Origin: Acidobacteriota bacterium
Lineage (GTDB): Bacteria > Acidobacteriota > Vicinamibacteria > Vicinamibacterales > UBA2999
NCBI GenBank assembly: GCA_016210845.1
Contig: JACQTK010000041.1
Coordinates: 1,781 to 65,780 of the forward strand
DNA: 64,000 bases
Direction: 5' to 3'
The notes under the pieces are model-generated. The model ran no database searches, was not told where the DNA came from, and was given only the letters and a program-made list of their open reading frames with translations. Made by a program: the position numbers and the translations under genes. This document shows, in pieces, positions 2,050-58,739 of this stretch. Each line of letters starts with the position of its first letter. The first letter of the stretch is position 1.

Positions 2050-2609
2050 GGGACCGCTATGCGGCTCCTTTCGAGAACGTGTACCGGTTGTGAACGTCGC
2101 ATAGCGGTCCCACGCGCGCGGAGCGCGCCAAGAAACACTGGCCGACCGGCCACGGGCTCGGAGGGCATGAAGGGCTGAGCCCGTGGCTGGTCCTGCTCGC
2201 GTGCCTGGACGACCAGCACGCCGTTCATGTCCTCGTGGCCCTCGCCACAGTACACCGAGCACACGATGGGAAAGCGTCCCGCCTCGCCGGCGACGAAGTC
2301 GATGATGACGGGCGCGCTGCCACGCGGAACCTCCTTCGAGATGTTGAGCGGCTTGATCTCGAAACCGTGGAGGCCGTCGCCCGATCGCACCACGAGCCGG
2401 ACGGCCTCGCCTGCGGTGACGGCGATCTCGGCTGGCTCGAAGCTGTACCGCCTGGCCAGCACCTCGATCGTGCGCGGCTCGGGAGACTGACCAGCCAGGC
2501 CGCTGCCGCCAGCTGTCCCCGCCACCAGGACCGCCGCCGCCGAGCAGCCGATCACGACCATCGGCCACACGGCGCGTACATGCTGGGTGACAGATCGCCT
2601 CATGCGCAT
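2046..2609 (-). CDS. CuA-type cupredoxin domain protein
   Basis: Track ORF with an N-terminal membrane anchor. LHGFEI ... CSVYCGEGHEDM matches the H...C-x3-C-x3-H-x2-M ligand pattern of CuA sites. The last 45 or so codons read through repeat copy 2051-2192 and end in an ATGA overlap with the next gene. Confidence 0.75.
   Translation of the reverse strand: MRMRRSVTQHVRAVWPMVVIGCSAAAVLVAGTAGGSGLAGQSPEPRTIEVLARRYSFEPAEIAVTAGEAVRLVVRSGDGLHGFEIKPLNISKEVPRGSAPVIIDFVAGEAGRFPIVCSVYCGEGHEDMNGVLVVQAREQDQPRAQPFMPSEPVAGRPVFLGALRARGTAMRRSQPVHVLERSRIAVP
2051..2192 (-). repeat. three-hairpin composite element, copy 1 (A-B-C on minus strand)
   Basis: Contains GGACCGCTATGCGG...CGCATAGCGGTCC, GCGCGCGGAGCGCGC and a variant A hairpin GGCCGACCGGCCACGGGCTC...GAGCCCGTGGCTGGTCC. 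Confidence 0.85.
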
Positions 2610-6102: not shown

Positions 6103-6132
6103 CGAGTTTCGTGGATCGTAACCCGGGGTTCT

Positions 6133-6240
6133 GGGTAGCTGGGTAGCTGGGTAGCTCGGTAGCTGGGTAGCTGGGTCGTTGGCGCGGCTTCCCAACGTGA
6201 TTCCCAAGCCACCAAGCTACCCAGCCACCTAGCTACCCAG
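6133..6240. repeat. hairpin built from tandem octamers (GGGTAGCT)n / (AGCTACCC)n
   Basis: The left arm has 5 direct GGGTAGCT units and the right arm has imperfect inverted copies. Confidence 0.8.
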
Positions 6241-6730: not shown

Positions 6731-6752
6731 AGGCGGACCTGCAGGTCCGCCT
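6731..6752. repeat. REP-like hairpin (CTGCAG loop variant)
   Basis: Reads aggcggacCTGCAGgtccgcct. Confidence 0.7.
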
Positions 6753-6757
6753 CGACG

Positions 6758-6904
6758 ACCAGCCAAGGGGCTCCGCCCCTTGATATCCCCGCGGAGCCCC
6801 TTGGCTGGTTGCCAGTATCTCTGGCCGCGCTCCGCGCGGCTAGGACCGCTATGCGGTCGACGCAAGCGAGTACAAACTTCACGTTCTGGGCCGCATAGCG
6901 GTCC
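6758..6904 (+). repeat. three-hairpin composite element, copy 2
   Basis: Hairpins A (ACCAGCCAAGGGG..CCCCTTGGCTGGT), B (GCCGCGCTCCGCGCGGC) and C (GGACCGCTATGCGG..CCGCATAGCGGTCC) occur in that order. Confidence 0.9.
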
Positions 6905-7225: not shown

Positions 7226-8743
7226 ATGGGGACCACGCGCAGGACGTTCCGGTTGGCCGTGGGTGCGGCGGGGCTCGTGGCGGTCTGTACGCTGGGGCTG
7301 AGGGCGGGCCAGATTTCCGTCGATGATGCGGAGCTGCAGTACCAGCTCGGCAACCTGCTGATCGAGGAAACGCGGTACCACGAGGCGCTGGACGCCTTCG
7401 ACCGGGCCACCCGGACGACCGATCCGGAGCTCGCGCAGCGCGCCCGCAAGGGCAAGGTGAAAATGGCGCTGCGGATCGCCGAGTTCGACCTGGCCCTGTC
7501 CGAGGCGGAGCGTCTGACGACCGACGCGCGTCAGGACGCCGAGTCGCTGACGCTGCACGGCGACGCGCTGTGGTCCGCGGGGCTGTTCCTCGAGTCCGAC
7601 CGTCTCTACGAACGCGCCATCGCGCTCGAACCCTCCTCGTCCCGCGCGCAGTTCGGCATCGCGCGCTCGCTCGCCACGCGCAACCGCCTCGAGGAAGCGC
7701 TCGACACCGCGCTCCGGGCGGTCGCGGCCGCGCCGCGCGACGGCGAGATCCATCACGCGGTCGGCGACATCTACGAGCGCCTGCACCGCTTCGACGAGGC
7801 GGTGGCGGCCTACAACAACTACATCAACCTGCTGCCCAACCGCGACCGCAGCGAGAAGGCGGCATGGTCGCGCGCGCAGGTCCGGTTCCTCGAGGCGTTC
7901 GCGGGCCGCACGCCGGTGGAGATCGACGAGCAGGACAACGGCATGCTGCACACCGTGCCGTTCCGGCTGGTGCGGGACAAGGTGGTGGTGCAGGCGCGCG
8001 TGAACGGCGGCAACCCTCAGGACTTCGTGCTCGACACCGGCGCGGAGGAGACGGTGCTCTCGGCGGCGACCGCGCGGCGGGTCGGCGTGCGTCCGATTAC
8101 GTACACCCTCAGCGCAGGCGTCGGCGAGATCGGCCTCCGGGGCCTGGAGCTGGCCCGTCTCGACCGGCTCGAGATCGGCACGCTGCAGATCCGCAACCTG
8201 CCGGTGATGATCAAGAATCCGGCGCTGCGCGGCATTCCGACGCGCGAGGGCGAGAGCTTCTCGCCGCTGTCGCTCGGCATGTCGATGACGATCGACTACC
8301 AGCAGCGGCTGCTGACGATCGGCCGGAAGCTGCCGGACGCCGAGGCCGACATCCGTCTGCCCATGCGCGTGCACCGCCTGGCGATGGTGCGCGGCCTGCT
8401 GAACGCGACGCGCCCCGCGTACTTCGTGGTCGACACGGGGGGCGAAGTGATCTCGATCAGCGCGGCGACTGCCGACTCGCTGGCGCCGTCGCCCTTCCGC
8501 CGCATCCCGCTGCGCGTCTACGGGACGTCGGGATGGGATCCCGACGCGTTCCTGCTGCCTGGCGTCGACCTCGATTTCGAGAGCATCGCCTTTCGCAACT
8601 TTCCGCTCGTCGTCCTCAACCTGCGCGCGCCGAGCGTGCTGCTCGGCTTCCAGGTCGGGGGCATCGTCGGGCACAAGTTCCTCGGCAGCTACCGCGTGAC
8701 GATGGACATGGCGGGCAGCGAGCTGAAGCTGGAGGAGTTCTGA
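7226..8743 (+). CDS. secreted TPR protein with two retropepsin-like (clan AA) aspartic protease domains
   Basis: Internal ATG of track ORF 6986..8743. Has a signal peptide, a TPR-like helical half and two D-T-G motifs (VLDTGAEET, VVDTGGEVIS). Confidence 0.8.
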   Translation: MGTTRRTFRLAVGAAGLVAVCTLGLRAGQISVDDAELQYQLGNLLIEETRYHEALDAFDRATRTTDPELAQRARKGKVKMALRIAEFDLALSEAERLTTDARQDAESLTLHGDALWSAGLFLESDRLYERAIALEPSSSRAQFGIARSLATRNRLEEALDTALRAVAAAPRDGEIHHAVGDIYERLHRFDEAVAAYNNYINLLPNRDRSEKAAWSRAQVRFLEAFAGRTPVEIDEQDNGMLHTVPFRLVRDKVVVQARVNGGNPQDFVLDTGAEETVLSAATARRVGVRPITYTLSAGVGEIGLRGLELARLDRLEIGTLQIRNLPVMIKNPALRGIPTREGESFSPLSLGMSMTIDYQQRLLTIGRKLPDAEADIRLPMRVHRLAMVRGLLNATRPAYFVVDTGGEVISISAATADSLAPSPFRRIPLRVYGTSGWDPDAFLLPGVDLDFESIAFRNFPLVVLNLRAPSVLLGFQVGGIVGHKFLGSYRVTMDMAGSELKLEEF

Positions 8744-8746
8744 CGC

Positions 8747-8823
8747 GCGGCGGCTGAAGCCGCCGCGCTACAGGTGGCACGGGGAACCCCCTTCCCGTGT
8801 AGCGCGGGGGCTTCAGCCCCCGC
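8747..8823. repeat. REP-like unit
   Basis: Reads gcggcggCTGAAGccgccgc GCTACAGG ... CGTGTAGC gcgggggCTTCAGcccccgc. Confidence 0.85.
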
Positions 8824-8831: not shown

Positions 8832-10322
8832 ATGCGCGCGATTCCTTGTTTCACGCTGTTCACGGCGATCGTGGCAGCGCTCACTCTGTCTGCCGCCGGC
8901 CAGGACGCCCTTGATCCGGCGGCGAGCTTCCAGCTCGCCGCGCAGTTGTACGACGCTGGCCGGTATCGAGAGGCGCTGGAGGCGTACGACCTGGCGACCC
9001 GTGGCGGCGACGCCGCGTTGGCCGGGCGGGCCCGCCGGGGCAAGGTGCGCGCGGCGCTCCGAGTGGCCGAATTCGAGCTGGCGCGGCGCGAAGCCGAGAC
9101 GCTCGTGGCGGCCCCGGCGGCCGACGCCGAGGCGCGGACGCTGCATGCCGACGCGCTGTGGGCGACCGGACTCTTCGACGAGGCCGATGCCGCATATCGC
9201 ACGGCGCTGGAGGCCGCCCCTGGCTCGGCGCGCGCCCGGTTCGGCCTCGCGCGGTCGCTGGCCACACGCAGCAGGCTCGAGGACGCGCTGGCCGAGGCGT
9301 CCTCCGCCCTGGCGGCCTCGCCCGACGACGCCGAAGTGCACGCGCTGCTCGGCCACGTGTCCGAGCGTCTGGGGCGGTTCGACGAGGCTGCGGATGCCTA
9401 CGAGCGCTACACGGCGCTGCTGCCGATCCGCGAGGATACGATGGCGGCCGTCTTCCTGGCGAAGGTTCAGCTCCTGCGGAGCTTCGCCGGGCGCACGCCG
9501 CTGTCGATCGATCCCCAGACCGCGGGCCGGGTCCACCGCGCGCGCTTCAAGCTCGTCAACAAGAAGATCGTGCTGCAGGGCCGTCTGAACGGCACGGCGG
9601 TGGAGCTCGTGCTCGACACCGGAGCCGAGCGCACGGGCATCTCGCGCGCCACCGCGCGCCGCGCGGGTGTGAGGCCCGTGACCACCACCCTCACCGCGGG
9701 CGTCGGCGCCAGTGTTCGGCGCCTGGATCTCGCGCGCGCCGACAGCCTCGAGATCGGCAGCTTCAAGATTCGCAACGTGCCGGTGTCGATTCGCAACCCT
9801 GCGCCCAACGCCATGCCGCGGTGGCAGAGCGAGAGCTTCTCGCCCATCTCGCTCGGGCTCTCGGTCCTGATCGACTATCAGCGGCAGGAAGTGGCGCTCG
9901 CCAAGACCTTGCCGGCTTCGTCCGCCGACGTCCGCCTGCCGATGCGCGTGAACCGGCTGCCGATGGTGCGCGGGCTGCTCAACTCCACGCGTCCCGCGTA
10001 CTTCGTGGTCGACACGGGCGGCGAGGTGATCTCGATCAGTGCGGAGACGGCCCGCGCGCTGGCGATGATGCCGGTACGGCGGATCCCGCTCCGCGTGTAC
10101 GGCATGTCGGGGTGGGACAGCGAGGCGTTCCTGCTGCCAGGCGTCGATCTCGACTTCGACGCGATCGAGTATCGCAAGGTGGGGCTGGCGGTGCTCAACC
10201 TCCGCGCGCCGAGCGTGTTCCTGGGCTTCCAGCTCGGCGGCATCGTCGGCCACGAGTTCCTGAGCGACTACCGCGTGTCGATGGACGTGGGGCGAAGCGA
10301 GCTGCGGCTGGAGAAGCCGTGA
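8832..10322 (+). CDS. paralog of the TPR / dual retropepsin-like aspartic protease
   Basis: Track ORF 8826..10322; ATG 8832 gives MRAIPCFTLFTAIVAALTLSAAG. Collinear with the upstream gene (VLDTGAERT, VVDTGGEVIS, identical ...RPAYFVVDTGGEVISIS... block). Confidence 0.8.
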   Translation: MRAIPCFTLFTAIVAALTLSAAGQDALDPAASFQLAAQLYDAGRYREALEAYDLATRGGDAALAGRARRGKVRAALRVAEFELARREAETLVAAPAADAEARTLHADALWATGLFDEADAAYRTALEAAPGSARARFGLARSLATRSRLEDALAEASSALAASPDDAEVHALLGHVSERLGRFDEAADAYERYTALLPIREDTMAAVFLAKVQLLRSFAGRTPLSIDPQTAGRVHRARFKLVNKKIVLQGRLNGTAVELVLDTGAERTGISRATARRAGVRPVTTTLTAGVGASVRRLDLARADSLEIGSFKIRNVPVSIRNPAPNAMPRWQSESFSPISLGLSVLIDYQRQEVALAKTLPASSADVRLPMRVNRLPMVRGLLNSTRPAYFVVDTGGEVISISAETARALAMMPVRRIPLRVYGMSGWDSEAFLLPGVDLDFDAIEYRKVGLAVLNLRAPSVFLGFQLGGIVGHEFLSDYRVSMDVGRSELRLEKP

Positions 10323-10326
10323 AGGC

Positions 10327-10414
10327 GCGGCGGCTGAAGCCGCCGCGCTACACCATTCCGTGTGGCGCGCGAACGTTGCGCCGTTACCTGTAGAGCGCAC
10401 GCTTCAGCGTGCGC
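10327..10414. repeat. REP-like unit
   Basis: Reads gcggcggCTGAAGccgccgc GCTACACC ... TACCTGTAGA gcgcacgCTTCAGcgtgcgc. Confidence 0.85.
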
Positions 10415-10438
10415 GATCAGACGCGATCAGATCAGCGA

Positions 10439-13593: not shown

Positions 13594-13733
13594 GACCAGC
13601 CAAGGGGCTAACCGCTCGATATCGCTGGCAGCACCCCTTGGCTGGTCAGCCAGCATCGGCTTGGCGCGCTCCGCGCGCCGAAGACCGCTCTACGGCTCCC
13701 TCACGAGTACAGATCGGAGCCGTAGAGCGGTCT
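13594..13733 (+). repeat. three-hairpin composite element, copy 3
   Basis: A-B-C order. The C stem is the variant GACCGCTCTACGGCTCC..GGAGCCGTAGAGCGGTC, with compensatory changes. Confidence 0.85.
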
Positions 13734-13959: not shown

Positions 13960-14553
13960 ATGTTCGGACGCCAGTCGCGGTCAGGCCTTGGAGCGGGGGA
14001 CGGCCCGGACGGTGCTCGCAGCGTGGCTGACGAGGCGCTGGGCCTTCTCGAGCCGATGTATGCCGCGGCGCTGCGCCTGACGCGCAACCGCGCCGATGCC
14101 GAGGATCTGGTGCAGGACACGTTCGTCAAGGCGCTCCGGTTCGGTCATCGGTACACGCCCGGGACCAACCTGAAAGCGTGGCTGTTGACCATCCTCCACA
14201 ACAGCTGGAGGAATCGCGTGCGCGGACGCGCGCGCGGCCGGCTGGACGTGGACAGCTCGCGGGTCGAGGATGCTGCCCTTGCGGGAAGCGCTGCGGCGCC
14301 GGACACGCCGGAGGCCGTTCTGCTGCGCGACACGCTGGACGCCGACCTGCAAGCGGCGCTCGACAGCCTCCCGGAGGCCTTTCGCGAGGCGGTCTGGCTG
14401 CGCGACGTCGAGGAGCTGTCGTACGCGGAGATCAGCAGCGTGCTCGCCGTGCCGCTGGGCACGGTCATGTCGCGCATCTCCAGAGGCCGACGCCTGTTGC
14501 ACGAGCGGCTCGCCGAGAAGCGGCTGGAAACCAGCCAAGGGGCTGCCCGTTGA
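13960..14553 (+). CDS. ECF-type RNA polymerase sigma factor
   Basis: Has region 2 (DAEDLVQDTFVKALR) and region 4 (LSYAEISSVLAVPLGTVMSRISRGR). Confidence 0.9.
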   Translation: MFGRQSRSGLGAGDGPDGARSVADEALGLLEPMYAAALRLTRNRADAEDLVQDTFVKALRFGHRYTPGTNLKAWLLTILHNSWRNRVRGRARGRLDVDSSRVEDAALAGSAAAPDTPEAVLLRDTLDADLQAALDSLPEAFREAVWLRDVEELSYAEISSVLAVPLGTVMSRISRGRRLLHERLAEKRLETSQGAAR

Positions 14554-14674
14554 CACCCCTGGCAGCACCCCTTGGCTGGTTAACCAGTCTCTGCTGGGCG
14601 CGCTCCGCGCGCCTGGGACCGCTATACGGCTCCGCACGACACACGAGAATCTCGTTCGGGCCGTATAGCGGTCC
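14529..14674 (+). repeat. three-hairpin composite element, copy 4 (between sigma and anti-sigma genes)
   Basis: A-B-C order. The C stem is the variant CTATACGG/CCGTATAG. Confidence 0.9.
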
Positions 14675-15454: not shown

Positions 15455-15493
15455 GAAGGCCCCGGGGCCCAGGCCCCAGGCCTCGGGCCCCAG

Positions 15494-15525
15494 TGTAGGG
15501 GCCGACCTTCAGGTCGGCCCCTACA
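15494..15525. repeat. REP-like hairpin
   Basis: Reads TGTAGgggccgacCTTCAGgtcggcccCTACA, preceded by GGCCCC(A/G) tandem repeats at 15455-15493. Confidence 0.85.
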
Positions 15526-15542
15526 GTAGAATGAGGCGAGCG

Positions 15543-16214: not shown

Positions 16215-16439
16215 ATGCTGAAGGGCTTCACGCACGCCCGCCTCGCCTGCGGCTGCAGGCTGACGTTCCGCGAGGGCGTCGAAGGCAGTCCCGTGACGGT
16301 GGTCATCGAGGAGAAGGGCGCCCACTGCGTGATGCCGCTGCACGTCCGCCACCTGCCCGTGTTCGATTTCCGCGAGGCCCTGCGTCCTCCGACGCGGTTC
16401 CTGCCCCTGGAAGAAGAAGGATTCGAGGAAGAAGGCTGA
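16215..16439 (+). CDS. small Cys/His protein (CGC...C...H..H), hypothetical
   Basis: Track ORF, followed by a canonical terminator. Has a paralog at 62377..62553. Confidence 0.45.
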   Translation: MLKGFTHARLACGCRLTFREGVEGSPVTVVIEEKGAHCVMPLHVRHLPVFDFREALRPPTRFLPLEEEGFEEEG

Positions 16440-16442
16440 TCT

Positions 16443-16560
16443 TAGTAGGCAGTAGGCAGTAGGCAGTCGGCAGTCGGCAGTCGGTCGTTCCGAAGGCGCT
16501 GTGTTGCAGCGCCTTTTCGTTTTTTGGGACTGCCCGCTGCCTACTGCCTACTGCCTACTG
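16443..16560. repeat. hairpin arms built from tandem heptamers (GGCAGTA/GGCAGTC)n ... (TACTGCC)n
   Basis: The left arm has 6 direct heptamers and the right arm has inverted copies. They flank the terminator. Confidence 0.85.
16493..16525 (+). terminator. rho-independent terminator
   Basis: Stem AAGGCGCTG / CAGCGCCTT, loop TGTTG, then TTCGTTTTTT. Confidence 0.75.
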
Positions 16561-17290: not shown

Positions 17291-17444
17291 GGACCGCTAT
17301 GCGGCTCCGAACGAAAATCCTGTACGCGTGGCCGGTCCGCATAGCGGTCCTCGGCGCGCGGAGCGCGCCAAGCAGATACTGGCAACCAGCCAAGGGCTCG
17401 ATTCTATGAGCAAGGGGATATCAACGGCGAGCCCTTGGCTGGTT
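17291..17444 (-). repeat. three-hairpin composite element, copy 5
   Basis: C-B-A order on the plus strand. Hairpin C ends 1 nt from the EEP ATG (17289). Confidence 0.9.
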
Positions 17445-17450
17445 GGTGGG

Positions 17451-17456
17451 TAGAAT
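17451..17456 (+). promoter_or_regulatory. putative -10 box TAGAAT, 6 nt before ATG 17463 (leaderless mRNA?)
   Basis: Hexamer and spacing only; no -35 recognised. Confidence 0.3.
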
Positions 17457-17462
17457 ACTCGT

Positions 17463-17765
17463 ATGGCCAAACTGAAGAGCGAGATCGAGGTGACCTGCCC
17501 CTGCTGCCGCAGCGCGCTGGTCATCGACCTCAACCTGGGTCGCGTCGTCTCGCACCGTGAGCCGGAGCGCGGCGACAAGCCGGAGCTGGACGAGGCGGCC
17601 CGCATCCTGGCGGCCGAGGCGGCGCGCCGCGAGGCCTTGTTCCAGCAGTCGGTCGAGGCGGAAAAGGGCCGCGGCGATGCGCTGGCCAAGCGCTTCGAGG
17701 AGGCGCTGCGCCAGGCCAAGGAAGAGCCGATCACGAGGCCCACGCGCGATTTCGACCTCGATTGA
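17463..17765 (+). CDS. small zinc-ribbon/coiled-coil protein, hypothetical
   Basis: Track ORF with an N-terminal CPCC motif and an Ala/Glu/Arg-rich helical remainder. Confidence 0.5.
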   Translation: MAKLKSEIEVTCPCCRSALVIDLNLGRVVSHREPERGDKPELDEAARILAAEAARREALFQQSVEAEKGRGDALAKRFEEALRQAKEEPITRPTRDFDLD

Positions 17766-18483: not shown

Positions 18484-19309
18484 CGAGTTCGGCCGGCGTC
18501 CACATGTTGCCGGAGCGGACGGAGACGAGGCGCCCGTCGGGATCGATCACCGCCGTCCGCAGGTTGTGCACGAGCATGTCGCCCGGCGCACCTGGAGGCT
18601 CGGCGGTCACGCCGAATCGCTTTGCGAAGCTCAAGACCTCCTCACGGTCCCCCGTGACGAAGTGCCAGCGCCGAGGATCGGCCCCCACGCGCTGCGCGTG
18701 CGCCTTCAGCACGTCAGGTGTGTCGACCTCCGGATCGAGGGTCACGGAGACGAGCCGCACGTCAGCCAGCTCGGGAGCCTCCGCGACGGCCTTCTGGACC
18801 TCCACGAAGTTTCGATCCATCCGGGGGCAGAAGTCGGGCAGCGGACAGCGCGTATACATGAACGTGAGCGCCACGCGGTGGCCCCGCAGCGATACCATCA
18901 GACGCGGGATCCGATCCTGGTCGACGAGGACGTGGTCGGGTACCGTGTCGCCTTCCTCGAGCAGATCCGCCGCCGTCAGGATCGGCCCAGCGGGCGGCGT
19001 CTCGATGGGGGCGTGTCCCGTTCGCGTGAGCGTCGACAGGTACGCGTCGACTTCCTCGACCACGAGCGTGGCCGTGAACAGGTCGCCCGGCTCCTTCCCC
19101 TCCAGCAGCGCCGCATCCCGCACCCGATAGGGCATCGTCATGGCCGCCATGAAGCCAGGGATGTCCTCGTGACTGACGAGCACTTCCCGCCGCTCGGGGT
19201 CGATGCGGAGGATCTGGCCCTTCACCTCGTACTGCCGCGGCTCGGGCGCACGGCTGCAGGCGCCCGCCGCCAGCGCCGCCACGAGCGCGATTCCAGCGAT
19301 TCGCCCCAT
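18446..19309 (-). CDS. SCO1/SenC-family copper chaperone lipoprotein with N-terminal Met-rich Cu-binding segment
   Basis: Internal ATG (MGRIAGIALVAALAAGAC) of track ORF 18446..19426. Has PGFMAAMTMPYRV and a thioredoxin-fold part with YTRCPLPDFCP. Confidence 0.8.
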   Translation of the reverse strand: MGRIAGIALVAALAAGACSRAPEPRQYEVKGQILRIDPERREVLVSHEDIPGFMAAMTMPYRVRDAALLEGKEPGDLFTATLVVEEVDAYLSTLTRTGHAPIETPPAGPILTAADLLEEGDTVPDHVLVDQDRIPRLMVSLRGHRVALTFMYTRCPLPDFCPRMDRNFVEVQKAVAEAPELADVRLVSVTLDPEVDTPDVLKAHAQRVGADPRRWHFVTGDREEVLSFAKRFGVTAEPPGAPGDMLVHNLRTAVIDPDGRLVSVRSGNMWTPAELVADLQAAPAPAN

Positions 19310-19320
19310 GTGATTAACTC

Positions 19321-19475
19321 TACCAGCCAAGGGCTGCCCGTGATACCCCTGGTGGCACCCTTGGCTGGTAGACCAGTATCTGCTTGGCGCGCTCCGCGCG
19401 CCTGGGACCGCTATGCGGCTCCCCACGAGGCCGTATCCGGTCCGATGTCCGTCATATGGAGCCGCATAGCGGTCC
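19321..19475 (+). repeat. three-hairpin composite element, copy 6
   Basis: A-B-C order with a perfect 18-bp C stem. It fills 155 of the 167 nt between divergent starts 19309 and 19477. Confidence 0.9.
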
Positions 19476-19476: not shown

Positions 19477-20187
19477 ATGATCTGGATCGGGACGTCCGGC
19501 TACAACTACCCGGAGTGGAAGGGCGCCTTCTATCCGGAGACGCTGTCCGCGGGGAAGATGCTCCCGTACTATGCCGAGCACTTCCCGACGGTCGAGATCA
19601 ACTACACGTTCTACCGGACGCCGAACGAGAAGATCCTCGACGGCTGGAACAGGGCCACGCCCGACCGCTTCAAGCTGACGCTCAAGGCGCCGCGGCGGAT
19701 CACGCACGACGCCAGGCTCCGTGACTGCGGCGATCGTGTGCGGCAGTTTCTCGAGACCTCCGCCACGCTCGGGCCCAAGCTCGGCGCCCTGCTGTTCCAG
19801 TTCCCGCCCAGCCTGAAAAAAGATCTCGCGCTGTTCGACGCGTTCCTCGACACCTTCCCACCCCGGGTCTGCGCGGCCTTCGAGTTCCGACACACCTCCT
19901 GGCTGGACGCGGCGATCTACGAGCGCCTCCACGCGCGGAACCTGGCGCTCTGCGTGGCCGACAGCCAGAAGCTCTCGACGCCGGTGGAGATCACCGCCGA
20001 CTACGCGTACTTCCGTCTCCGTGACGAGGGGTACACCGCGGCGGATATCGATCGCTGGGCGGAGGCCATCGCGGAGCGAACGAAGGCGTGCGGCGACGCC
20101 TTCGTGTACTTCAAGCACGAGGAATCGGGGAAGGGGCCGGAGTTCGCGAAGATGCTGATGGAGTGCCTCGGAATCGGGCCGACTTAA
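19477..20187 (+). CDS. DUF72 family protein (YecE-like)
   Basis: Internal ATG (MIWIGTSGYNYPEWKGAFYP...) of track ORF 19384..20187. The N-terminus is typical of DUF72. Confidence 0.85.
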   Translation: MIWIGTSGYNYPEWKGAFYPETLSAGKMLPYYAEHFPTVEINYTFYRTPNEKILDGWNRATPDRFKLTLKAPRRITHDARLRDCGDRVRQFLETSATLGPKLGALLFQFPPSLKKDLALFDAFLDTFPPRVCAAFEFRHTSWLDAAIYERLHARNLALCVADSQKLSTPVEITADYAYFRLRDEGYTAADIDRWAEAIAERTKACGDAFVYFKHEESGKGPEFAKMLMECLGIGPT

Positions 20188-20282
20188 AGGTCGGCCCCTA
20201 CATCGACTCCGTTCCCGCGCGTGTAGGGGCCGACCTTCAGGTCGGCCCGTGTGCCGGCCAGGTCGGCCCGTATGTCGGACCG
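20176..20282. repeat. REP-like cluster; both convergent genes stop in its first loop
   Basis: Reads gggccgacTTAAAGgtcggccc CTACA...TGTAG gggccgacCTTCAGgtcggccc plus partial copies. Confidence 0.85.
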
Positions 20283-25191: not shown

Positions 25192-25419
25192 TCAGGACGG
25201 TTGACGGCCGAAGTCCACCCGCGGCACGCGCTCGGCCTCGGGCGGCGCGTTGAAGACCGGGTACTCCTCGAACCCGAAGAGGCCCGCCGTGATGTTCGAC
25301 GGGAACTGCCGCCGCAGCGTGTTGTACTGGGAGACGAAGCGGTTGTACGAGCAGCCGGACGACAGCACGGCCGCTGCCGCCAGCACCGCCACGCCGGCGG
25401 GTCGAGTCATCGCGTTCAT
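25192..25419 (-). CDS. LemA-like lipoprotein remnant (signal peptide fused to the last 50 or so aa of LemA)
   Basis: MNAMTRPAGVAVLAAAAVLSSGC then YNRFVSQYNTLRRQFPSNITAGLFGFEEYPVF...PRVDF. This is 75 aa against about 185 aa expected. Confidence 0.5.
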   Translation of the reverse strand: MNAMTRPAGVAVLAAAAVLSSGCSYNRFVSQYNTLRRQFPSNITAGLFGFEEYPVFNAPPEAERVPRVDFGRQPS

Positions 25420-25451: not shown

Positions 25452-25597
25452 GGACCGCTATGCGGCCCGGAACGCGAATTTTGTTCTCGTTGTGCCCTCC
25501 GCATAGCGGTCCTCGCCGCGCGAAGCGCGGCAGAAAAATACTGGCACCCAGCCAAGGGGCTCCGGGGATATCAAGGGGCGGAGCCCCTTGGCTGGTT
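25452..25597 (-). repeat. three-hairpin composite element, copy 7
   Basis: C-B-A order on the plus strand. The A loop is nearly identical to copies 2 and 8. Confidence 0.9.
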
Positions 25598-25649
25598 TCC
25601 ACTTTCTACTCACTTTCCACTTTCCACTTTTGACTTTTCACCTTACAGG

Positions 25650-26340
25650 CTACCACCTTGCTCCGCCGCCGCCGCCGCTCCGTCCGCCCCCGAAACCGCC
25701 AAAGCCGCCGCCAAAGCCCCCAACGCCGCCCCCGAACGGGCCGACGCCGCTGTGCCAGCCGCTCCATGGTCCGCCGCCCCACCGCCGCCGCCGATGGAAT
25801 CGCCGGCCGCCCCGCAGGCGGGCGGCAATCGCGCTGAGCACCAGCATGGAGACGAACATGATCACCAGGAGGCCCGCTCCGGGCTCGACACCAGGCACGC
25901 GCGGCTGAGGGGAGGGCACCCCTGGCAGCGCGACGTTGCGTCGCTCTGCGACGCGTTCAACGATGCGTGAGACGCCGGCCAGCAGTCCCGCTCCATAGTT
26001 GCCGCGGCGGAACTCGGGCGCCATGTACCGTCGGCTCGTCTCGCCCGCGAAGCCGTCGGTGATGAACTCCTCGAGGTCGTAGCCGACCTCCACCCAGACG
26101 TCACGGTCCTCGACCGCCAGCACGATCAGCAGGCCGTTGTCCTTGCCGCGCTGGCCGATGCCGCGCCCCCGGTTCTCGAACAGCGCGTTGGCGTACTCGC
26201 GAATGTCGGCGTAGGGGGCGTACGTGTCGACGGCAGCGACGACCACCACGTCGCCGCTGGCGCGCTGAAGCGAGCGGACGAGCGCGTCCATCGCCTGCTC
26301 GCTGGCTGGGGAAAGCGGCCGGTAAGAGGAAAGGGCGCGT
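25650..26340 (-). pseudogene. TPM-domain (YgcG-like) protein, 5'-truncated at the island junction
   Basis: Track ORF 25650..26291 has a TPM core (...NGLLIVLAVEDRDVWVEVGYDLEEF...), a TM segment and a Gly-rich tail. The signal peptide and first 30 or so aa are missing, and homology fades around 26.30-26.34 kb. Confidence 0.6.
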
Positions 26341-27965
26341 TCGTGCCCACCAGCGCCTCGAAATCGCCCTCACCGACCGCGCGCAGATATGGCTTCTGGC
26401 TTTCCTCGTAGACGGGGTAGAGCGTGAACCGCACCCCCAGCCGTGATAACTCCGCCTTGACGCGCTCCGGCCGATCCTGGAGAAGCGCGACGATATCAGC
26501 AACCTGCTGCGTCACCCAGCTGGGAATCACGGTGACGCGTCTGGCGTCGAGAGGAACGTCGAGTGCCGCGATTTCGGCCTCGACCGTGGCCAGCTCGCGT
26601 TCGCGCTCTCTGAGCGCCTGCAGGACCGTCGTACTGGCCATGCCGCTTTCGATCGCGGCCAGCAAATGCCGGATCTTCTGGCCGAGCGCGTCGCGTTGGT
26701 GGAGCAACGTCTCGCGCCGGCTGGGCCGCGTCTCGACGGCCTCCTGGACCGCCGAGGAGAGCCGCGATGTACTCGAGTGTCTCCAGTCGGGTAATTTCCG
26801 CCTGCACACCAGCGAGCAGCGCGCGCTCGGCGTCCTCGGCGCGCGCCGTGACCCGGTTGGTGCAAACCGCTTGGCCGTTCTTCGCGTAGTTGCTACAGCC
26901 GTAGTAGCGGTACACCCGATCGCGATACAGGTGCTGCGAGACGATGCTCACGGCCCGGCCGCACTCCCCACACCGCAGGAATCCGCTGAACACAGCGCGA
27001 CCGTGTATCACCCCGCACCGACCACGGAGGAGGCTTCGACCGGGCTGTCGATGACTCGAAAGGGCGTGTGTCAATGCCTGCCGGCGACGCTGAACGCGCG
27101 CCCACATGGCGTCGTCGACGATGCGAAGGTCGGGTCGCTCCGCGATCTGCCACTCGCTGCGTGCGACGGGGCGCTGGATCTTCGCGCGCGTGCCCGGCTT
27201 CCGCTCCGTGCGCGTCCGCCCCCAGATCAGCCGGCCTAAGTACCGCTGGTTCACGAGCAGTCGGCGGACTGCCGCGATGCGCCACCCGCCGAGGCTCCCC
27301 CCGCCACGCGGGGCGGGGGCGCCTGCCTCGTGCAGCTTCGCGACGATCGCCGGCAGCGTCAGGCCCTCGGCATACCACTCGAAGATCTGCCGCACGTAGG
27401 CTGCTTCGGTCGGCTCGATCTCCACGCGATACCCGAGGGGCACATCAGGACACGTGGGATCGGGACCTCGGACCGTGCGGTAGCCGTAGGTAACCCCACC
27501 GGTGGCAAACCCACGGGTCAACTGGCCGCTGAGGCCGCGCCGAATCTTGGCCGCGGACTCCTGAAGATACAGACCGTCCACAAGGCCATGCACGATGAGC
27601 AACGTCTCGTACTGCGCGCTGTGGCTGTCGATCTGTTGCGAGATGTAGATCACGCGAATACGGGCAAACGTCAGTTGCTGGACGACGCGCAAGGCGTCAG
27701 GCAGGTAACGTGCGACCCGGCTGCTGTCGTCGACAAGCAGGACGTCGAACGGCGGGGGAATGACTGCTGCGGCCGTGAGGAGGGCGTGCAAGCCGCGTCG
27801 GCCCTCCATGGACGCCCCGGACATGCCGGCGTCCCTGTACACGTGCTCAGCCTGCCAAGTCCAGCCCTGACGCTCGGCGTACTCTCGGCAATTGCGGATC
27901 TGATCGTCCAGCGAGGTTTCCCGCTGCAGGTCGGATGAGAATCGGGCGTAGCAGGCGCATCGCAT
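26340..27965 (-). pseudogene. large serine recombinase (integrase), apparently frameshifted near 26.77 kb
   Basis: MRCACYARFSSDLQ... resolvase domain, recombinase domain and zinc ribbon (CGECG...C..C) occupy the frame of ORF 26496..27986. The coiled-coil/C-terminal part (…LHQRDALGQKIRHLLAAIESG…VRFTLYP…) continues in the frame of ORF 26126..26809. Confidence 0.8.
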
Positions 27966-28437
27966 GGCAGGGGAGTCTACACTCAAGCGGCCGATCGCTG
28001 CTCGCGCAACAATCGCTCCAGCAGTGCGGGCACGATCACGGCGTCGATGAACCGCTGCAACTCCGGAGATGAGGGCCGCGGCTCCCTGTTTGCACGTGCG
28101 GAGGTCGTGTGGGTGGTTCGTCGTTCACCATCCTGAGCCATGTGTGACCAGCAGCGCTGATCCGGCACGCATGCCGAACCGGGCCGATCGCGCGCTCGTC
28201 ATGCCGACGATGTCACGCGTCTCGTTACGCAGCATCGGGATCGCTCCCGTCGCAGGAGTCGAGGGTGAGGGTGACTGCGGGTCGCAGGCAGTCCCCTCTT
28301 GGAATGACGAACTGGTAGCTCTTGCCGGCGTGGAGCGTCAGCCGACGCCGCTCCTGGCCGATCACTTCGCAGGTCAGCGTGAACTCGAAAAAGCCGTGCT
28401 TCAAGCCGTCGTGAATTTCCGCGAGCAGGAGTTGGTG

Positions 28438-29150
28438 GGCCGTCCGGGCAAGCAGCCCGACGGCTCCGCCAGGACGCGCGAGGTCAAGCTGTGCACGGTC
28501 TGGAGTGCCGAGGGCCGCGACGAGGACGGCACACCCGTGCGCGACGAGGGGTCGATCAGCTACTCGGCCGCCATCGAGAGCGCGGCCCAGAAGGACACCG
28601 ACGAGGTGCCGAGCGAGTTCGCGGCGCGCGTCGAGCGCGAAACCACGCGGCGCGCCTTCGACCGCGCGGCGCGCCGGGCCGTGCTCGGCGATGGGGCCAC
28701 GTGGATCTGGAACCTCGCCACCGAGCACTACCCTGACGCTGTCCAGATCGTCGACCGCTTCCACGCCAAGCAGCACCTCTCGGACGTGAGCAAGTCCGTC
28801 TACGGGGCGGGCAGCGACCGGGGCGCGCAGTGGGCGCGCGCGCGCCACGACGAGTTGGACGCTGGCGACATCGATGCCGTCCTGACCGCCGTACGCGTGC
28901 ACGCGCCGAAAGACGAGGAGGCGCGCACGTGCGTCGGGTATGTCGAGGACAACCGTGCCCGCATGCGCTACGCCGAGTTCCGGGCGGCGGGGCTGTGCAC
29001 CTCGACCGGGGTCGTCGAGGCGGGATGCAAGGTCGCGATCGGGACGCGCCTCAAGCGCGCCGGCATGCACTGGACCGTGGCGGGCGCCGACGCCATCATC
29101 CCGCTGCTGCAAGCTCAGCGGACGCTTCGAGGACTTCTGGGAGCGCCGCG
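28438..29150 (+). pseudogene. ISKra4-family transposase fragment (N-terminus missing, 3' frameshift)
   Basis: Reads ...LGDGATWIWNLATEHYPDAVQIVDRFHAKQHL...RMRYAEFRAAGLCTSTGVVEAGCKVAIGTRLKRAGMHWTV. The terminal ...CCKLSGRFEDFWERR lies in another frame (ORF 28940..29173). Confidence 0.6.
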
Positions 29151-29151
29151 C

Positions 29152-29790
29152 TCAGCACCGGCTGGCCGCATGACCGCCCGTCATCTCACAATCGTGACGT
29201 GCGCCCGGGTCCGCCTTCGGATCCGGCAGCACGTAGTCCCGGATGTCCCCCGTCCGGGGATCGAGCCGCCCGATGCGGTTCGGGACACTGCGGTCGGTGT
29301 ACCAGACGTTGCCGTCCCGATCCAGGTAAGGCTCCTGAGCCCGGCGTGAGGTGTTGTTCTTGTCGAGCTCTGGATCGAGAGGCAGGTAGTACTCGACGTA
29401 CATCGCCTGGGCCAACGCCCGTTCGTCGACAGGGTAATCGACATCCACACGAAGCGCGCGGCGCGCGCTGCCCGGGCCGAAGTTCGCCGTCAGGTAGCTG
29501 AGGATGGCTTCCCGGTCGGTCTGACTCACGGTGCCCTGCGGAACCATGGTCGCCTGGTTCGCGGTTCTGCTGGTCATCAGCGTGATGGCGCTGTTCCACT
29601 GCGCCGCCGTCAGTTGGCGAGACGGAAGAAGTTGGGGCCATGGCAGTAGACGCAGTGCTTCAAGAGCGCGTCCCGCTCCGGTCCGGCGGGATACAGCTCG
29701 TCATGGGGCACCAGGGGAATCCCTCGGGCGTTCAACGCCGATTGCTGGGCCTCGGCCGGAACCTCCTTCGATCTCGGTCAGCGCATCGAA
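29152..29790 (-). pseudogene. remnant of a cytochrome c + beta-propeller protein, frameshifted and 3'-truncated by the IS fragment
   Basis: Heme motif KHCVYCHG (about 29.64 kb) is in one frame. RQLTAAQWNSAITLM...REAILSYLTANFGP...NVWYTDRSVPNRIGRLDPRTGD is in the next frame (ORF 29152..29577). Confidence 0.5.
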
Positions 29791-29839
29791 CAGCTTCGGG
29801 CGGTGAGCACACTGGTGTACAACGATGGTCTCCGAGGGA

Positions 29840-30289
29840 ATGGCCAAGATCGGTCGCAACGACCCCTGTCACTGCGGGAGTGGCCTGAAGTACAAGCGGT
29901 GCTGCCTGCCGCGTGAGGAAGCCGCCGCCGCCGCGCGGGCCGTGACGCGTGCGCGCGAGGCGGCACCCGGCCTCGCCACCTCGGTGGAGATCGTAGCGGA
30001 GAACGATGGCCTCGACGAGGCGTCGAATCGCCCGATCGACCTCATCGACGCGGGACGACTTGACGAGGCTGAACAGGCGGCCTACGACCTCCTACAACGC
30101 TACCCCCAGGTGCACGATGGGCTCGAACGCCTGGCGATGGTCTACGCCGCCCGCGGCGATCGCGTCCGTGCCGCCGAGTACTATCGCAAGGCTGCGGACT
30201 TCGTCCTCGTGCACGGCGATCCGTACGACCTTGCGATGCACACCTATCTGCGAAAGCGGGCGGCGGCATTGGACCCGCCGATTCGGTGA
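29840..30289 (+). CDS. SEC-C motif protein
   Basis: MAKIGRNDPCHCGSGLKYKRCC is a SecA-type metal-binding motif at the N-terminus, followed by a helical TPR-like remainder. GAGGG lies upstream. Confidence 0.7.
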   Translation: MAKIGRNDPCHCGSGLKYKRCCLPREEAAAAARAVTRAREAAPGLATSVEIVAENDGLDEASNRPIDLIDAGRLDEAEQAAYDLLQRYPQVHDGLERLAMVYAARGDRVRAAEYYRKAADFVLVHGDPYDLAMHTYLRKRAAALDPPIR

Positions 30290-30430
30290 GTGGTCAGGCG
30301 GTCAGGCTACGTGAGGGAGCGAAGAGTCGGTCCCTCGCCGTCCGTGATTCACAGGTCGAAATAGACCCTCAACGACTGTGGCGATTCTGACTCGCCTGAC
30401 ATTTCGTGCAGTTTGAATCGAGGAACACAG

Positions 30431-30676
30431 ATGACAGACGAAGATCTGAGAGCGGAGCTCGAGCGGCTCAAGGCGGAAAATGAGCGCCTCAGGAGCCAAC
30501 GTGGTCGCGTCAGCCTCAAGGTCAGCGAGAAAGGGGGCGTGTCGGTCTATGGGCTCGGTCGCTTTCCCGTGACGCTCTATAAGGAGCAGTGGACCAAGTT
30601 GCTCGCAATGGCCGACGAAATTCTGGCGTTCATCAAGGAGCACGACGCGGAGCTGAAGGCAAAGCCGGAAGCATAG
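30431..30676 (+). CDS. small hypothetical protein (phage/plasmid-like)
   Basis: ATG preceded by GAGGA. Has a coiled-coil N-terminus, then VSVYGLGRFPVTLYKEQW. Lies in an AT-richer stretch. Confidence 0.5.
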   Translation: MTDEDLRAELERLKAENERLRSQRGRVSLKVSEKGGVSVYGLGRFPVTLYKEQWTKLLAMADEILAFIKEHDAELKAKPEA

Positions 30677-30997
30677 GGGATCGCCATAACGTGAGCCGGC
30701 AGTGGCGGCGCATCCGCGGGCCGTGCCGAGGCGGACCGAAGCTACGGCGTGTCCTACCGAACTCCCGGCCGCGCGGCGTCCTAAACGCCGGCCGATCGTC
30801 GCGTGCTGCTGACCATGACAGCAGACCGACCGAGGCGCGTTCACGAAGCGGAATGGTGGAAGCTCGAACGCGAGTTCCTGCGCGCATCCCCTTTTTGGCG
30901 TGCCAAAGGAGTGTTCGCGCGGAGTTGCCGCCGAAGATTCGGGTGAAAGTTGTGATTCGTTGACCCAAGTCGTATCTCGGGCGTACTCTTCCAGTGA

Positions 30998-31378
30998 ATG
31001 GCCAGCCGGAAAACTACCGGGCGGATACCGACACCAAAGGCCGCCAGCCTGGCAAATCTGCGCCGTGGGGGCGGCCGGCCGAGAGGCGTGCCGAACAAGG
31101 TGACCCGCGAGGTGCGCGAACTGGCACAGCGGCTGTTTGATGAGGCGTACTGGAAGCGGACGCAGCAGCGCCTGGCTCAGGGCCGACTCGCGCCGGCCGT
31201 CGAATGCCGCTTGTTGGCGTACGCGTATGGCGAGCCAAAGACGCAGCCGCAGCCTCCACAGTGGAATTTGGATCCGACGGCCTTGGCAAAGCTCTCGAAC
31301 GAGGACCTCGAGCGGGCCCTGCAACACGCGGAGGCCATCCAGACAATTCTGGGCGACGGGCCAGCGCAGGCGGAGTAA
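30998..31378 (+). CDS. hypothetical protein, phage-like (basic N-terminus GGGRPRGVPNKVT, ...LLAYAYGEP...)
   Basis: Track ORF. The pattern is reminiscent of small phage DNA-binding or terminase-small-subunit-like proteins; this is weak. Confidence 0.45.
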   Translation: MASRKTTGRIPTPKAASLANLRRGGGRPRGVPNKVTREVRELAQRLFDEAYWKRTQQRLAQGRLAPAVECRLLAYAYGEPKTQPQPPQWNLDPTALAKLSNEDLERALQHAEAIQTILGDGPAQAE

Positions 31379-31503
31379 CTCAAGCTTAAACTCAAGCCAG
31401 GCTCGATTTTGGGGGCACCGTGACCCTTCTTCGGGTGCCGATCGACGTGCCTGGGGCAACGTCGCAAGCCGAAAAATCGTGCCGCTTTCTGCCGCGCACA
31501 CTC

Positions 31504-31690
31504 CTAGCCTACTGGCGCCGTCGTCCCTGAACGTCCGCCGTGCTGGGCCGTCCGCAGGTAGTTATCGATCTCGTAAGGACTGAACCGGAAGTGGCCACGT
31601 TTCCCAAAGCGCGGAAGGTGCGGCACAGGATACGCGGCGCTGATCTTCCTCACCTGACTGCGTACTTCGTGAACGCGGAGCCCGCCGCTT
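31504..31690 (-). pseudogene. excisionase-type HTH fragment (no start codon)
   Basis: Tail of ORF 31504..32091 reads ...VHEVRSQVRKISAAYPVPHLPRFGKRGHFRFSPYEIDNYLR, which resembles Xis/AlpA-family DNA-binding domains. It overlaps the end of the NHL gene. Confidence 0.35.
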
Positions 31691-32804: not shown

Positions 32805-32894
32805 GGAAGCCTCCTTCGCGGTGAAAAGCGGAAAATCAATAATTCTCCCGGACCGGCTGCCTTCGGTCAAACGTGCGGCCGATCCGGGCGAAAG

Positions 32895-33320: not shown

Positions 33321-33438
33321 GCACAGCGTATCGACGGAGGTCGTAACGCGTTAGCACTCCCTGGGTCTTCCTCGCCGCCTTCCTTCTCGGACCCTAAGGG
33401 CAGCCCGTAAGCCCATGTAGAATCGGCCGGGACCACTG

Positions 33439-38327: not shown

Positions 38328-38406
38328 ACAGGGCGAATGTGTTTCGAAAACACCTGTCTGCGGGACGCCTTTCCAGGCGGTCTGACCCGTCCAGAGTCCC
38401 CAAGAA

Positions 38407-45457: not shown

Positions 45458-45463
45458 GTCGGG

Positions 45464-47459: not shown

Positions 47460-47463
47460 GACG

Positions 47464-56467: not shown

Positions 56468-58614
<2,147 letters not shown>

Positions 58615-58739
58615 AGCGGTCCTAGCCGCGCGGAGCGCGGCAGAAGAGACTGGAACCAGCCAAGGGGCTCCGCGGGGATATCAAGGGGCGGAGCCCCTTG
58701 GCTGGTTTCATGATCGGCGACCAGTGTACATTGCCCTGG

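Follow-up and report, generated by a model that had tools for sequence, protein, structure and literature searches.

A three-hairpin palindromic repeat family, probably mobile, in Vicinamibacterales genomes of the Acidobacteriota

The element and its eight copies

The stretch of DNA analysed here (the window) comprises 64,000 nucleotides of contig JACQTK010000041.1, from an Acidobacteriota bacterium of the order Vicinamibacterales, and has a G+C content of 67.5%. At positions 19321 to 19475, between the divergent starts of an SCO1/CusF gene and a DUF72 gene, lies a structured, non-coding element of about 150 nucleotides that occurs eight times in the window. The copies are numbered c1 to c8 by window position, the flagged copy being c6. 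The genes beside them are of many kinds: cupredoxin and DUF5777 genes of one operon (c1), a ferredoxin gene (c2), a Tricorn-like peptidase, an ECF sigma factor and its anti-sigma factor (c3 and c4), an Exo_endo_phos gene and a gene of 100 amino acids here called p100 (c5), TPM-domain and LemA-like genes (c7), and a molybdopterin oxidoreductase gene (c8).

Alignment, motif searches and covariance-model searches with cmsearch returned eight copies of an element of about 147 nt, AACCAGCC…GCGGTCCA, with the same coordinates and strands as a preliminary description of this DNA had given (Table 1). The cmsearch scores of the eight copies are 129-150 bits; when the eight intervals are aligned, mean column identity is 70-73%, with long invariant blocks. 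The stem words ACCAGCCAAGGG (0.2 occurrences expected) and GGACCGCTATGCGG (1.0 expected) occur 15 times each in the window, and because all of these fall in the eight copies, except for a single chance-level match at 46274, the stem-motif search of the whole window yields no ninth copy.

Each of the eight copies has the parts in the order previously described: hairpin A, a spacer, hairpin B and hairpin C. The conserved ends, as read from 87-89 anchored copies of the wider family, are AACCAGCC…GCGGTCCA(A), which corrects the preliminary description, and the flanks outside these ends are essentially random. Each end of the element pairs within its own hairpin (A or C), not with the other end: when the 5′ end AACCAGCCAAGG is set against the reverse-complemented 3′ end, TTGGACCGCTATG, only ACC..GC is common to the two, in agreement with the earlier statement that there are no terminal inverted repeats of the type found in MITEs (miniature transposable elements with inverted repeats).

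The copies had been described as lying between genes and at most overlapping gene ends. This does not hold for c1, where the open reading frame (ORF) of the cupredoxin (window 2046-2609, minus strand) crosses the element in frame through all 141 nt, so that c1 adds 47 residues to it, and terminates in the ATGA that it shares with the following gene; a public gene call likewise runs the cupredoxin ORF through c1. The sigma-factor ORF (window 13960-14553, plus strand) ends 25 nt inside c4, at the TGA in loop A. Such extensions of ORFs by c1 and c4 are a likely source of annotation artefacts in public records. The three start codons reported to stand 1 nt past hairpin C, i.e., those of the DUF72 gene at 19477, the DUF5777 gene at 2049 and the Exo_endo_phos gene at 17289, are backed by homolog lengths and N-terminal alignments. 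The ferredoxin gene beside c2 has a Shine-Dalgarno sequence.

The LemA-like lipoprotein gene beside c7 (window 25192-25419, minus strand) matches only positions 103-149 of a 149-position profile and has an apparent internal deletion, GCSYNRFVS being joined to QYNTLRRQFP, which is unrelated to c7. Interruption of this gene by c7 was considered and ruled out: in addition to the internal deletion, the gene has its own lipoprotein signal downstream of the element.

Table 1. Positions of the eight copies, of the parts of copy c6, and of promoter-like boxes and other repeats in the window
Feature	Position	Strand	Support and context
c1	2051..2192	-	cmsearch; between cupredoxin and DUF5777 genes of one operon
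c2	6758..6904	+	149.7 bits; sense, between conserved TATACT box and ferredoxin gene
c3	13594..13733	+	cmsearch; divergent spacer, Tricorn-like peptidase / ECF sigma factor
c4	14529..14674	+	cmsearch; between ECF sigma factor and its anti-sigma factor
c5	17291..17444	-	cmsearch; Exo_endo_phos gene start 17289 (-) / p100 start 17463 (+)
c6 (flagged copy, full length)	19321..19475	+	cmsearch 131.6 bits; fold z = -7.9
c6 neighbours			SCO1/CusF gene start 19309 (-); DUF72 gene start 19477 (+)
c6 hairpin A	19321..19370	+	minimum free energy structure; stem (T)ACCAGCCAAGGG / CCCTTGGCTGGTA; loop with conserved TGATAyCC
c6 spacer, unpaired, conserved, GACCAGTATCTGCTT	19371..19385	+	conserved columns in 8- and 89-copy alignments
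c6 hairpin B, GGCGCGC-TCC-GCGCGCC	19386..19402	+	fold
c6 hairpin C, GGACCGCTATGCGGCTCC…GGAGCCGCATAGCGGTCC	19405..19475	+	fold; AGGA-N5-ATG in 5′ arm
c7	25452..25597	-	cmsearch; between TPM-domain gene and LemA-like gene, same direction
c8	58562..58707	-	cmsearch; divergent spacer adjoining molybdopterin oxidoreductase gene
TAGAAT, -10-like box, host sequence	17451..17456	+	6 nt before p100 ATG
TAGAGT, -10-like box, host sequence	19317..19322	-	7 nt before SCO1 ATG; overlaps first 2 nt aligned to element
GTAG-type REP copies	556-629, 1124-1197, 8746-8778, 10326-10416, 45385-45458, 47431-47461, 50498-50572		
Second GTAG-headed family	5267-5353, 15493-15527, 20175-20255; also 6732-6751, about 52200		

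Occurrence of the family and empty sites in relatives

A 20-base pattern taken from the invariant columns, run against one genome per species, matched at least 97 stretches, mostly from metagenome-assembled genomes (MAGs) of Vicinamibacterales/Acidobacteriota. With a covariance model built from the eight window copies and a full-length cut-off of E ≤ 1e-16, at least 91 full-length copies were found, all of them, among the matches listed, in Vicinamibacterales-type Acidobacteriota MAGs. The same set of full copies was returned by nhmmer, together with partial copies, some consisting of A, spacer and B only and some of B and C only. Pattern matches in Sorangium, Noviherbaspirillum, Didemnitutus and others have no covariance-model match and were discarded as chance. 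Searches of Rfam 15, a comparison that had been proposed in the preliminary description, gave no known RNA family: there is no match at gathering scores in the whole window, and at c6 with a threshold of E ≤ 10 there are two matches at chance level (E = 5). No similar DNA was found in plasmid or phage collections, the literal stem sequences are absent from the searchable literature, and no description of a three-hairpin family was found in the literature on repeats and MITEs of Vicinamibacter and Acidobacteria.

Comparison with relatives (sequences of the comparison set are designated L plus a number) shows that copies were inserted at sites that are empty in close relatives, that independent insertions recur in the same spacer, and that copies decay. 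No copy is present in 85 syntenic loci (329 kb), of which 80 are metagenomic and were found via the gene between c5 and c6 and five were found via DUF72 homologs, in a search in which the positive control worked; nor is there any in L188 and L189, 17.6-kb loci with the gene order of the window. In one relative contig, represented by L189 and L185, all six sites from c1 to c6 are empty. At the c4 site in L189 only 1 nt separates the sigma gene from the anti-sigma gene, at the empty c2 site the ferredoxin spacer is 50 nt long, and at the c3 site the element is absent in both L188 and L189. At the c1 site in L184 the cupredoxin and DUF5777 genes overlap by ATGA without an element; in the window the 141-nt element stands immediately before this ATGA, and the cupredoxin ORF reaches the same stop as in L184.

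The junctions between empty and filled sites are precise for c6, c5 and c1, and for L012 compared with L091. The c6 site is empty in L100, L110, L128, L167 and others, the 17-nt spacer in those four being CAT rTGyTTAACTCTAyCAr ATG, while the filled site in the window reads CAT GTGATTAACTC[TACCAGCC…GCGGTCC]G ATG. The c5 site in relatives is likewise empty, with a spacer of 14-25 nt (e.g. CAT AGCAC TATTCTAGTGGCAC ATG), and its filled form in the window is TATTCTACCCACC[AACCAGCC…GCGGTCC]AATG. L091 has no element at the corresponding place, and its xseB shares TGATG with the upstream gene. In L012 the element lies directly after the ATGGAA of xseB; the upstream ORF now ends at the TGA of loop A, and hairpin C offers, in its 5′ arm, an ATG in frame with XseB (CTATGCGG, with GGGA before it in place of the consensus AGGA); the Pfam Exonuc_VII_S match begins at residue 24.

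The reverse is also seen: L076 carries a copy, and the syntenic spacer of the window, at 52.2-52.5 kb, has none. L003 shares synteny with window 7.6-16.4 kb, the nucleotide identity being about 76%. Its sigma/anti-sigma spacer holds an element in the opposite orientation to c4 and at a different position, and its ortholog of c3 retains only A, the spacer and B, hairpin C having been lost.

The flank logos of 89 copies reveal no target duplication. The junctions allow a duplication of at most 3 bp (CCA), which is indistinguishable from the conserved ends of the element, and they fit two models equally: a 3-bp CCA duplication, or insertion 3′ of ACCA without duplication. (A)ACCA stands at the left junction in the empty c6 sites, where it can be seen, and in the c5 and L012 sites as reconstructed by removal of the element. 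At these empty sites ACCA or AACCA is identical to the 5′ terminus of the element. The base that follows CCAA is T in 28 of 89 copies, more often than expected (p = 4e-4). A 2-bp duplication of AA was considered and rejected: the dinucleotides to the left and right do not co-vary, and the junction of L012 does not fit.

Copies are 73.5% identical within a genome and 67.8% across genomes. Two copies from one MAG (JBOGIR01), L024 4255-4402 and L017 6256-6404, have identical left flanks and different right flanks, which would be explained by recombination between copies or by a break or chimera of the assembly at the repeat.

Stem pairing, gene context and neighbouring repeats

The fold of c6 has a free energy of -92.3 kcal/mol (z = -7.9), and its reverse complement folds equally well (-96.4 kcal/mol, z = -8.0). 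The compensatory stem variants quoted in the preliminary description are present in the alignment of copies, and a covariation check of the kind proposed there, when run on 91 copies, gives statistical support: 92.1% of cells are paired, and there are 21 double-change pairs against 10.3±1.5 in shuffles, none of 500 shuffles reaching 21. In slid controls, pairing drops to 28-45%. Covarying pairs in hairpin A are 7-46 (CG to TA) and 10-43 (AT to CG); in hairpin B the second stem pair (compact pair 68-82) changes from GC to CG in 24 of 91 copies, and in hairpin C pair 96-136 changes from GC to AT in 27-29 copies. Pairing is therefore maintained by compensatory change in the stems. This covariation is no pointer to RNA, because in the solid stems G·T mismatches, which are wobble pairs on the sense strand, and A·C mismatches, which are wobble pairs on the antisense strand, are about equally common (in hairpin C roughly 19 versus 20); hairpin A has one position at which 26 copies carry A·C. 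It is only towards the apex of hairpin C that G·T is in excess on the sense strand. Upkeep of the palindromes would be expected just as much if the hairpins act as DNA, in mobilisation.

Genes were called with our own codon log-odds caller, and context was scored for the 77 copies that have genes on both sides. Of these, 26 lie between divergent genes, 26 between co-directional genes in sense, 17 between co-directional genes in antisense and eight between convergent genes. Divergent spacers are thus favoured over convergent ones (26 versus 8, p = 0.003), and element ends face a gene start in 102 of 166 cases (p = 0.004), the C end doing so in 55 of 83 and the A end in 47 of 83 (p = 0.26). The preliminary description had found that the order A-B-C follows transcription in the co-directional contexts. 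This is true of the three co-directional copies in the window; it is not a general rule for the family, because sense copies do not significantly outnumber antisense copies (26 versus 17, p = 0.22). Upstream ORFs often run up to or into the element and end in one of two places: right at the junction, where the AA of the element contributes to a TAA or TGA, or 24-26 nt inside, at the TGA of loop A. The lengths of copies leave remainders of 0, 1 and 2 on division by three in 26, 18 and 43 cases, which rules out in-frame insertion of the kind seen for RPE as a general rule; only c1 is read through.

The divergent spacers at the c5 and c6 sites of relatives are only about 14-25 nt long and have conserved -10-like boxes 6-8 nt before each ATG. 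Of 58 relatives, 51 keep the TAGAAT box at a distance of 6 nt from the p100 ATG, as do 36 of the 41 spacers that have been expanded, every expansion lying beyond the box, and the TAGAGT box is conserved in the relatives' empty 17-nt c6 spacers. Boxes of these kinds (TAGAAT/TATTCT and TAGAGT) are found at window 17445-17465 and 19307-19322 and in L100-L182, with no Shine-Dalgarno sequence there. Judged from the sequences, such spacers may be overlapping divergent leaderless promoters in Vicinamibacterales. Since the ancestral spacers are this short, the earlier conclusion that promoters or 5′ ends lie at the edge of the element is sound. A scan for promoters and terminators in window 13.4-19.7 kb found no promoter-like site, and the terminator-like sites in this region lie outside the copies.

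In other relatives, unrelated repeats occupy the same c5 and c6 junctions: heptamer arrays of AACCACC/CTACCAG and CACAGAG, and small GGGTCC…GGACCC hairpins (L098, L134, L136, L150, L151, L164, L173, L182, L119 and others). The box next to p100 or SCO1 is intact despite these repeats. The junctions are therefore recurrent hot spots of insertion or expansion.

The window is rich in other repeats. A classical GTAG-type REP family (CCTGTAGAGCG followed by a GC-rich hairpin …GCTTCAGC…) often forms inverted doublets of about 74 nt that resemble REPINs, and its presence implies RAYT-type activity in the genome. A second GTAG-headed family of small hairpins (GTGTAGGGGCCGACCTTCAGGTCGGCCC, with the related GGCGGACCTGCAGGTCCGCC) has one member directly beside c2. 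Heptamer arrays of (GGCAGTA)n followed by inverted (TACTGCC)n form long hairpins between convergent genes (window 16428-16560 and 56450-56568), and an 8-mer array (CTGGGTAG)n and a (GTGGAAA)n array, the latter abutting c7, lie at 6123-6184 and 25605-25650. Repeats may be nested: the copies L010 5051-5191, L061 2261-2407 and L069 6170-6317 are centred in heptamer-array hairpins, their flanks being mutually inverted. Two genomes that are 96-97% identical differ by an indel (L006 5052-5215 versus L037 5815-5865) that derives from another hairpin family, with CTTCCGCCTGAAGGCGGAAG arms, and this implies recent turnover of repeats in these genomes.

Some features of the surroundings do not concern repeats. 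From about 26500 to 45000 the window has weaker host-like codon scores, very large ORFs (1146 and 1195 amino acids) and no copy of the element; it may be an acquired island. Tandem paralogous genes with TPR and aspartyl-protease domains (window 7226-8743 and 8832-10322) are about 74% identical over 300 nt. In a relative without the element, an IS256-family transposase (Transposase_mut) takes the place of a sigma-54 activator beside the cupredoxin-DUF5777 operon (L184 1-906 / L188 1386-2660).

Interpretation and comparison with known repeats

We regard these sequences, with a probability of roughly 0.78, as a family of non-autonomous mobile palindromic repeats of the BOX/ERIC/REP/MITE kind: about 147 bp long, non-coding, composed of three palindromic modules, and multiplied in a subset of Vicinamibacterales, a group of soil and groundwater. 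The family is undescribed, although its kind, the bacterial interspersed palindromic or mosaic repeat, is already known. Like MITEs, it is small, non-coding, multi-copy, and present or absent between related genomes. Of the roles proposed in the preliminary description, that of a mobile element is supported by the empty orthologous sites, the independent insertions in opposite orientation, the decayed copies and the lineage-limited occurrence.

The spread of such a family may be envisaged as follows. A transposase or recombinase supplied in trans would recognise the two terminal hairpins, A and C, along with the conserved loops and the spacer, and this recognition would be the reason for the conserved pairing. 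Insertion would occur at (A)ACCA-like sites; it would leave no terminal inverted repeats and duplicate no more than 3 bp (CCA), and the host would decide where copies survive. Many divergent gene pairs of the clade would have the short spacers described above, with overlapping -10 boxes close to each ATG; in a spacer of this type the only tolerable place for an insertion would be the last few bases before one ATG, as elsewhere the box or its spacing would be broken. Copies surviving in operons would keep the stop/start overlap (as c1 does) or provide a replacement ATG from hairpin C (as in L012). The position beside the ATG is thus attributed to survivorship, few positions being tolerated in compact promoter regions, and survivorship would account for the ATG 1 nt after hairpin C, the in-frame read-through of c1 and the replacement ATG of L012. 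The unrelated repeats that fill the same junctions in relatives, with the neighbouring box intact, agree with this. The element would become a structured 5′ untranslated region (UTR) or an inter-cistronic segment as a by-product, not as its purpose.

Several points weigh against this account. The relatives compared are 73-86% identical at the protein level, so that mobility is deduced between genomes and not from population polymorphism. Among 190 sequences (1.15 Mb) there is no composite of the form A…gene…C and no transposase beside a copy, only decayed solo hairpins. (A 1.7-kb segment bounded by pieces of the element in L009/L094 was considered as an autonomous element and rejected: it holds an ordinary gene, a PepSY-type membrane protein-like ORF, which adjoins an ORF that reads like a TonB-dependent receptor.) Because the window copies are only 71-91% identical to the nearest sampled copy in a relative, most insertions appear to be old, and the family may be inactive; that c3 is common to the window and L003 is consistent with old insertions. 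An ATG stands directly at the 3′ junction in 10 of 87 copies, where about 3.3 would be expected (p = 0.002), and this enrichment could reflect choice of target rather than survivorship. With respect to the C-side gene, every one of the eight window copies has the sense orientation. Finally, the conserved loops and spacer and the run of G·T pairs in apical hairpin C could point to a function at the level of the host or of RNA.

If target choice is taken further, the element, like the unrelated repeats at the same junctions, would be directed to the transcription start or open-complex region of leaderless genes, with (A)ACCA just before the ATG, so that a leaderless gene would acquire a long structured leader. 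This seems improbable; if true, the element would be a mobile switch of the mode of translation, and its hairpins might be processed to regenerate a 5′-AUG. Another explanation is that the element is a cis-regulatory RNA, i.e., a structured 5′ leader transcribed from A to C whose hairpins control translation or stability of the gene after C. The covariation of the stems, the common orientation of the window copies, the apical G·T pairs of hairpin C and the position of c2, c5 and c6 between a -10-like box and a start codon, where they would be transcribed as 5′ UTR, are all in keeping with it, as is the sequestering of AGGA-N5-ATG by hairpin C, with that ATG in frame in L012. However, the same genes lack the element in relatives (the 85 syntenic loci, L188 and L189), the neighbouring genes are functionally unrelated to one another, antisense copies make up 17 of the 43 co-directional ones, eight others occur between convergent genes, some copies are partial or decayed, the fold of the reverse strand is no worse, the solid stems contain similar numbers of G·T and A·C, and Rfam holds no match. 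We consider it unlikely, and as a general explanation the leader role is not supported, given the absence of the element upstream of orthologous genes and its mixed orientation. The idea that the element carries outward-facing promoters of its own and rewires its neighbours, as Correia elements do, fares poorly as well. It would suit the near-complete filling of the divergent spacers at c5 and c6, the separation of the C-side DUF72 and Exo_endo_phos genes from the ancestral -10 box by about 150 bp, and the enrichment of ends that face a start; but no sigma-70-type promoter match was found in 13.4-19.7 kb, which holds c3-c6, and no TANNNT box can be read in the sequence at a suitable distance from either end. 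Moreover, the A-side genes keep their own conserved box, the empty sites already hold -10-like boxes, C ends are not more often directed at a start than A ends, and copies also lie inside operons and between convergent genes. This role is accordingly unlikely and is unproven.

The element might also be a DNA feature recruited by the host, either a binding array (for a nucleoid protein, gyrase or regulator) or a cruciform, that is kept for DNA topology. The strong conservation of loop A (TTGATATCC), the spacer (CCAGTATCTGCTTGG) and hairpin B, parts that are unpaired or invariant, would fit, as would the preference for divergent over convergent spacers; yet the element is missing from close relatives that have the same promoters, its copies decay, loop A as read has no match to the IHF consensus, and the element is not tied to any class of genes, all of which makes such a role very improbable. 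A more specific version of the mobile-repeat interpretation, tentative and rather unlikely, is that the family is REPIN/BIME-like or derived from IS200/IS605 and is moved as single-stranded DNA by a Y1 (HUH) transposase or RAYT, inserting 3′ of (A)ACCA. REPs are thought to be mobilised by RAYTs (PMC3733652), and the GTAG-type REP/REPIN repeats in the window make a Y1-type enzyme a candidate; hairpin ends, the lack of terminal inverted repeats and of any duplication of more than 3 bp, and the match of (A)ACCA at the c6, c5 and L012 sites to the 5′ terminus of the element agree with this. On the other side, the element has no GTAG or CGTC head, its units are 50-70 nt rather than 20-40 nt, its stems run to the very termini, unlike IS608-type ends, no Y1 gene adjoins any copy in the 1.15 Mb, and a 3-bp CCA duplication fits the junctions equally. 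Nor is there a replication-strand bias, with four plus and four minus copies in a uniformly positive GC skew, although with n = 8 this argument is weak.

As an interspersed mobile repeat, the family adds an undescribed member to the repeats of a major, barely studied soil phylum. It has practical effects, in that it breaks assemblies and lengthens ORF calls (c1, c4), and, since compensatory changes in stems are also a feature of mobile palindromes, it can be taken for a structured RNA. What the empty sites reveal are divergent spacers of about 14-25 nt that carry a conserved -10-like box 6-8 nt before each ATG; this arrangement, on sequence grounds, suggests that leaderless expression is widespread in the Vicinamibacterales clade, and the spacers would show purifying selection steering insertions towards the base that adjoins a start codon. 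Should the element still be active, a new pair of transposase and target might be reached through its hairpin ends.

Among known systems, the BOX elements of Streptococcus pneumoniae are mosaic repeats of boxA, boxB and boxC, and they are compared here by architecture, not by alignment. Both BOX and the present family are about 150 bp long, non-coding and intergenic, lie near unrelated genes, and consist of three distinct modules in fixed order with stable predicted hairpins; both have variants that lack some modules (here A and B only, or B and C only) and no known transposase. Unlike BOX, which is unrelated in sequence and belongs to another phylum, the Acidobacteriota family has a long perfect hairpin at each end and was not seen to multiply its middle module in tandem. 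The ERIC/IRU sequences of enterobacteria, imperfect palindromes of 127 bp, are similar in size, in presence or absence between relatives, in both orientations being found, in lying in transcribed intergenic regions including the inside of operons, and in that the mobilising enzyme is not known for either. They differ in being one long imperfect palindrome, whereas here there are three separate hairpins with asymmetric ends, and in sequence the two are not alike. Classical MITEs and the Correia/NEMIS elements of Neisseria share with the family a length of about 100-160 bp, non-autonomy and abundance, and they too are often near gene starts, co-transcribed and able to alter expression. What sets Correia elements apart are terminal inverted repeats of 26 bp, a duplication of TA and an IHF site; here there are neither terminal inverted repeats nor a TA duplication.

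REP/BIME/REPIN sequences, which are associated with RAYT (PMC3733652), are also palindromic, high-copy, lineage-specific and intergenic, with inverted doublets that form long hairpins and stems that are maintained. In contrast to them, the present family has no GTAG/CGTC head (GTAG occurs only as a stem variant in c3, and the true GTAG REPs of the window are different in appearance) and ends in AACCAGCC and GCGGTCCA; its arms are 14-18 nt and its loops 15-40 nt, compared with REP units of 20-40 nt; it is biased to gene starts, whereas REPs lie mostly at 3′ ends; and no RAYT gene flanked by the element was found in the 1.15 Mb, in which the genomes carrying the family are represented by 8-kb pieces. 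PATEs, derived from IS200/IS605, likewise have hairpins at both ends, no terminal inverted repeats, no long duplication and a conserved short sequence at the left junction; here, however, the window copies show no bias in orientation, the hairpins lie at the very ends instead of subterminally, and no parent IS was found in the 1.15 Mb. The in-frame read-through of c1 by an upstream ORF recalls RPE of Rickettsia and MIRU of mycobacteria, and c1 and the L012 copy lie exactly at operon stop/start overlaps, the typical position of MIRU; unlike RPE, the family has no excess of lengths in multiples of three, and most copies are non-coding. By the features that define them, the family does not belong to the classical MITEs, the REPs, the RPEs or any Rfam family, and for an IS200/IS605-type origin the features are mixed. 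Its nearest counterparts in architecture are pneumococcal BOX and ERIC, and its nearest counterparts in genome biology are REP/BIME/REPIN and MITEs such as Correia.

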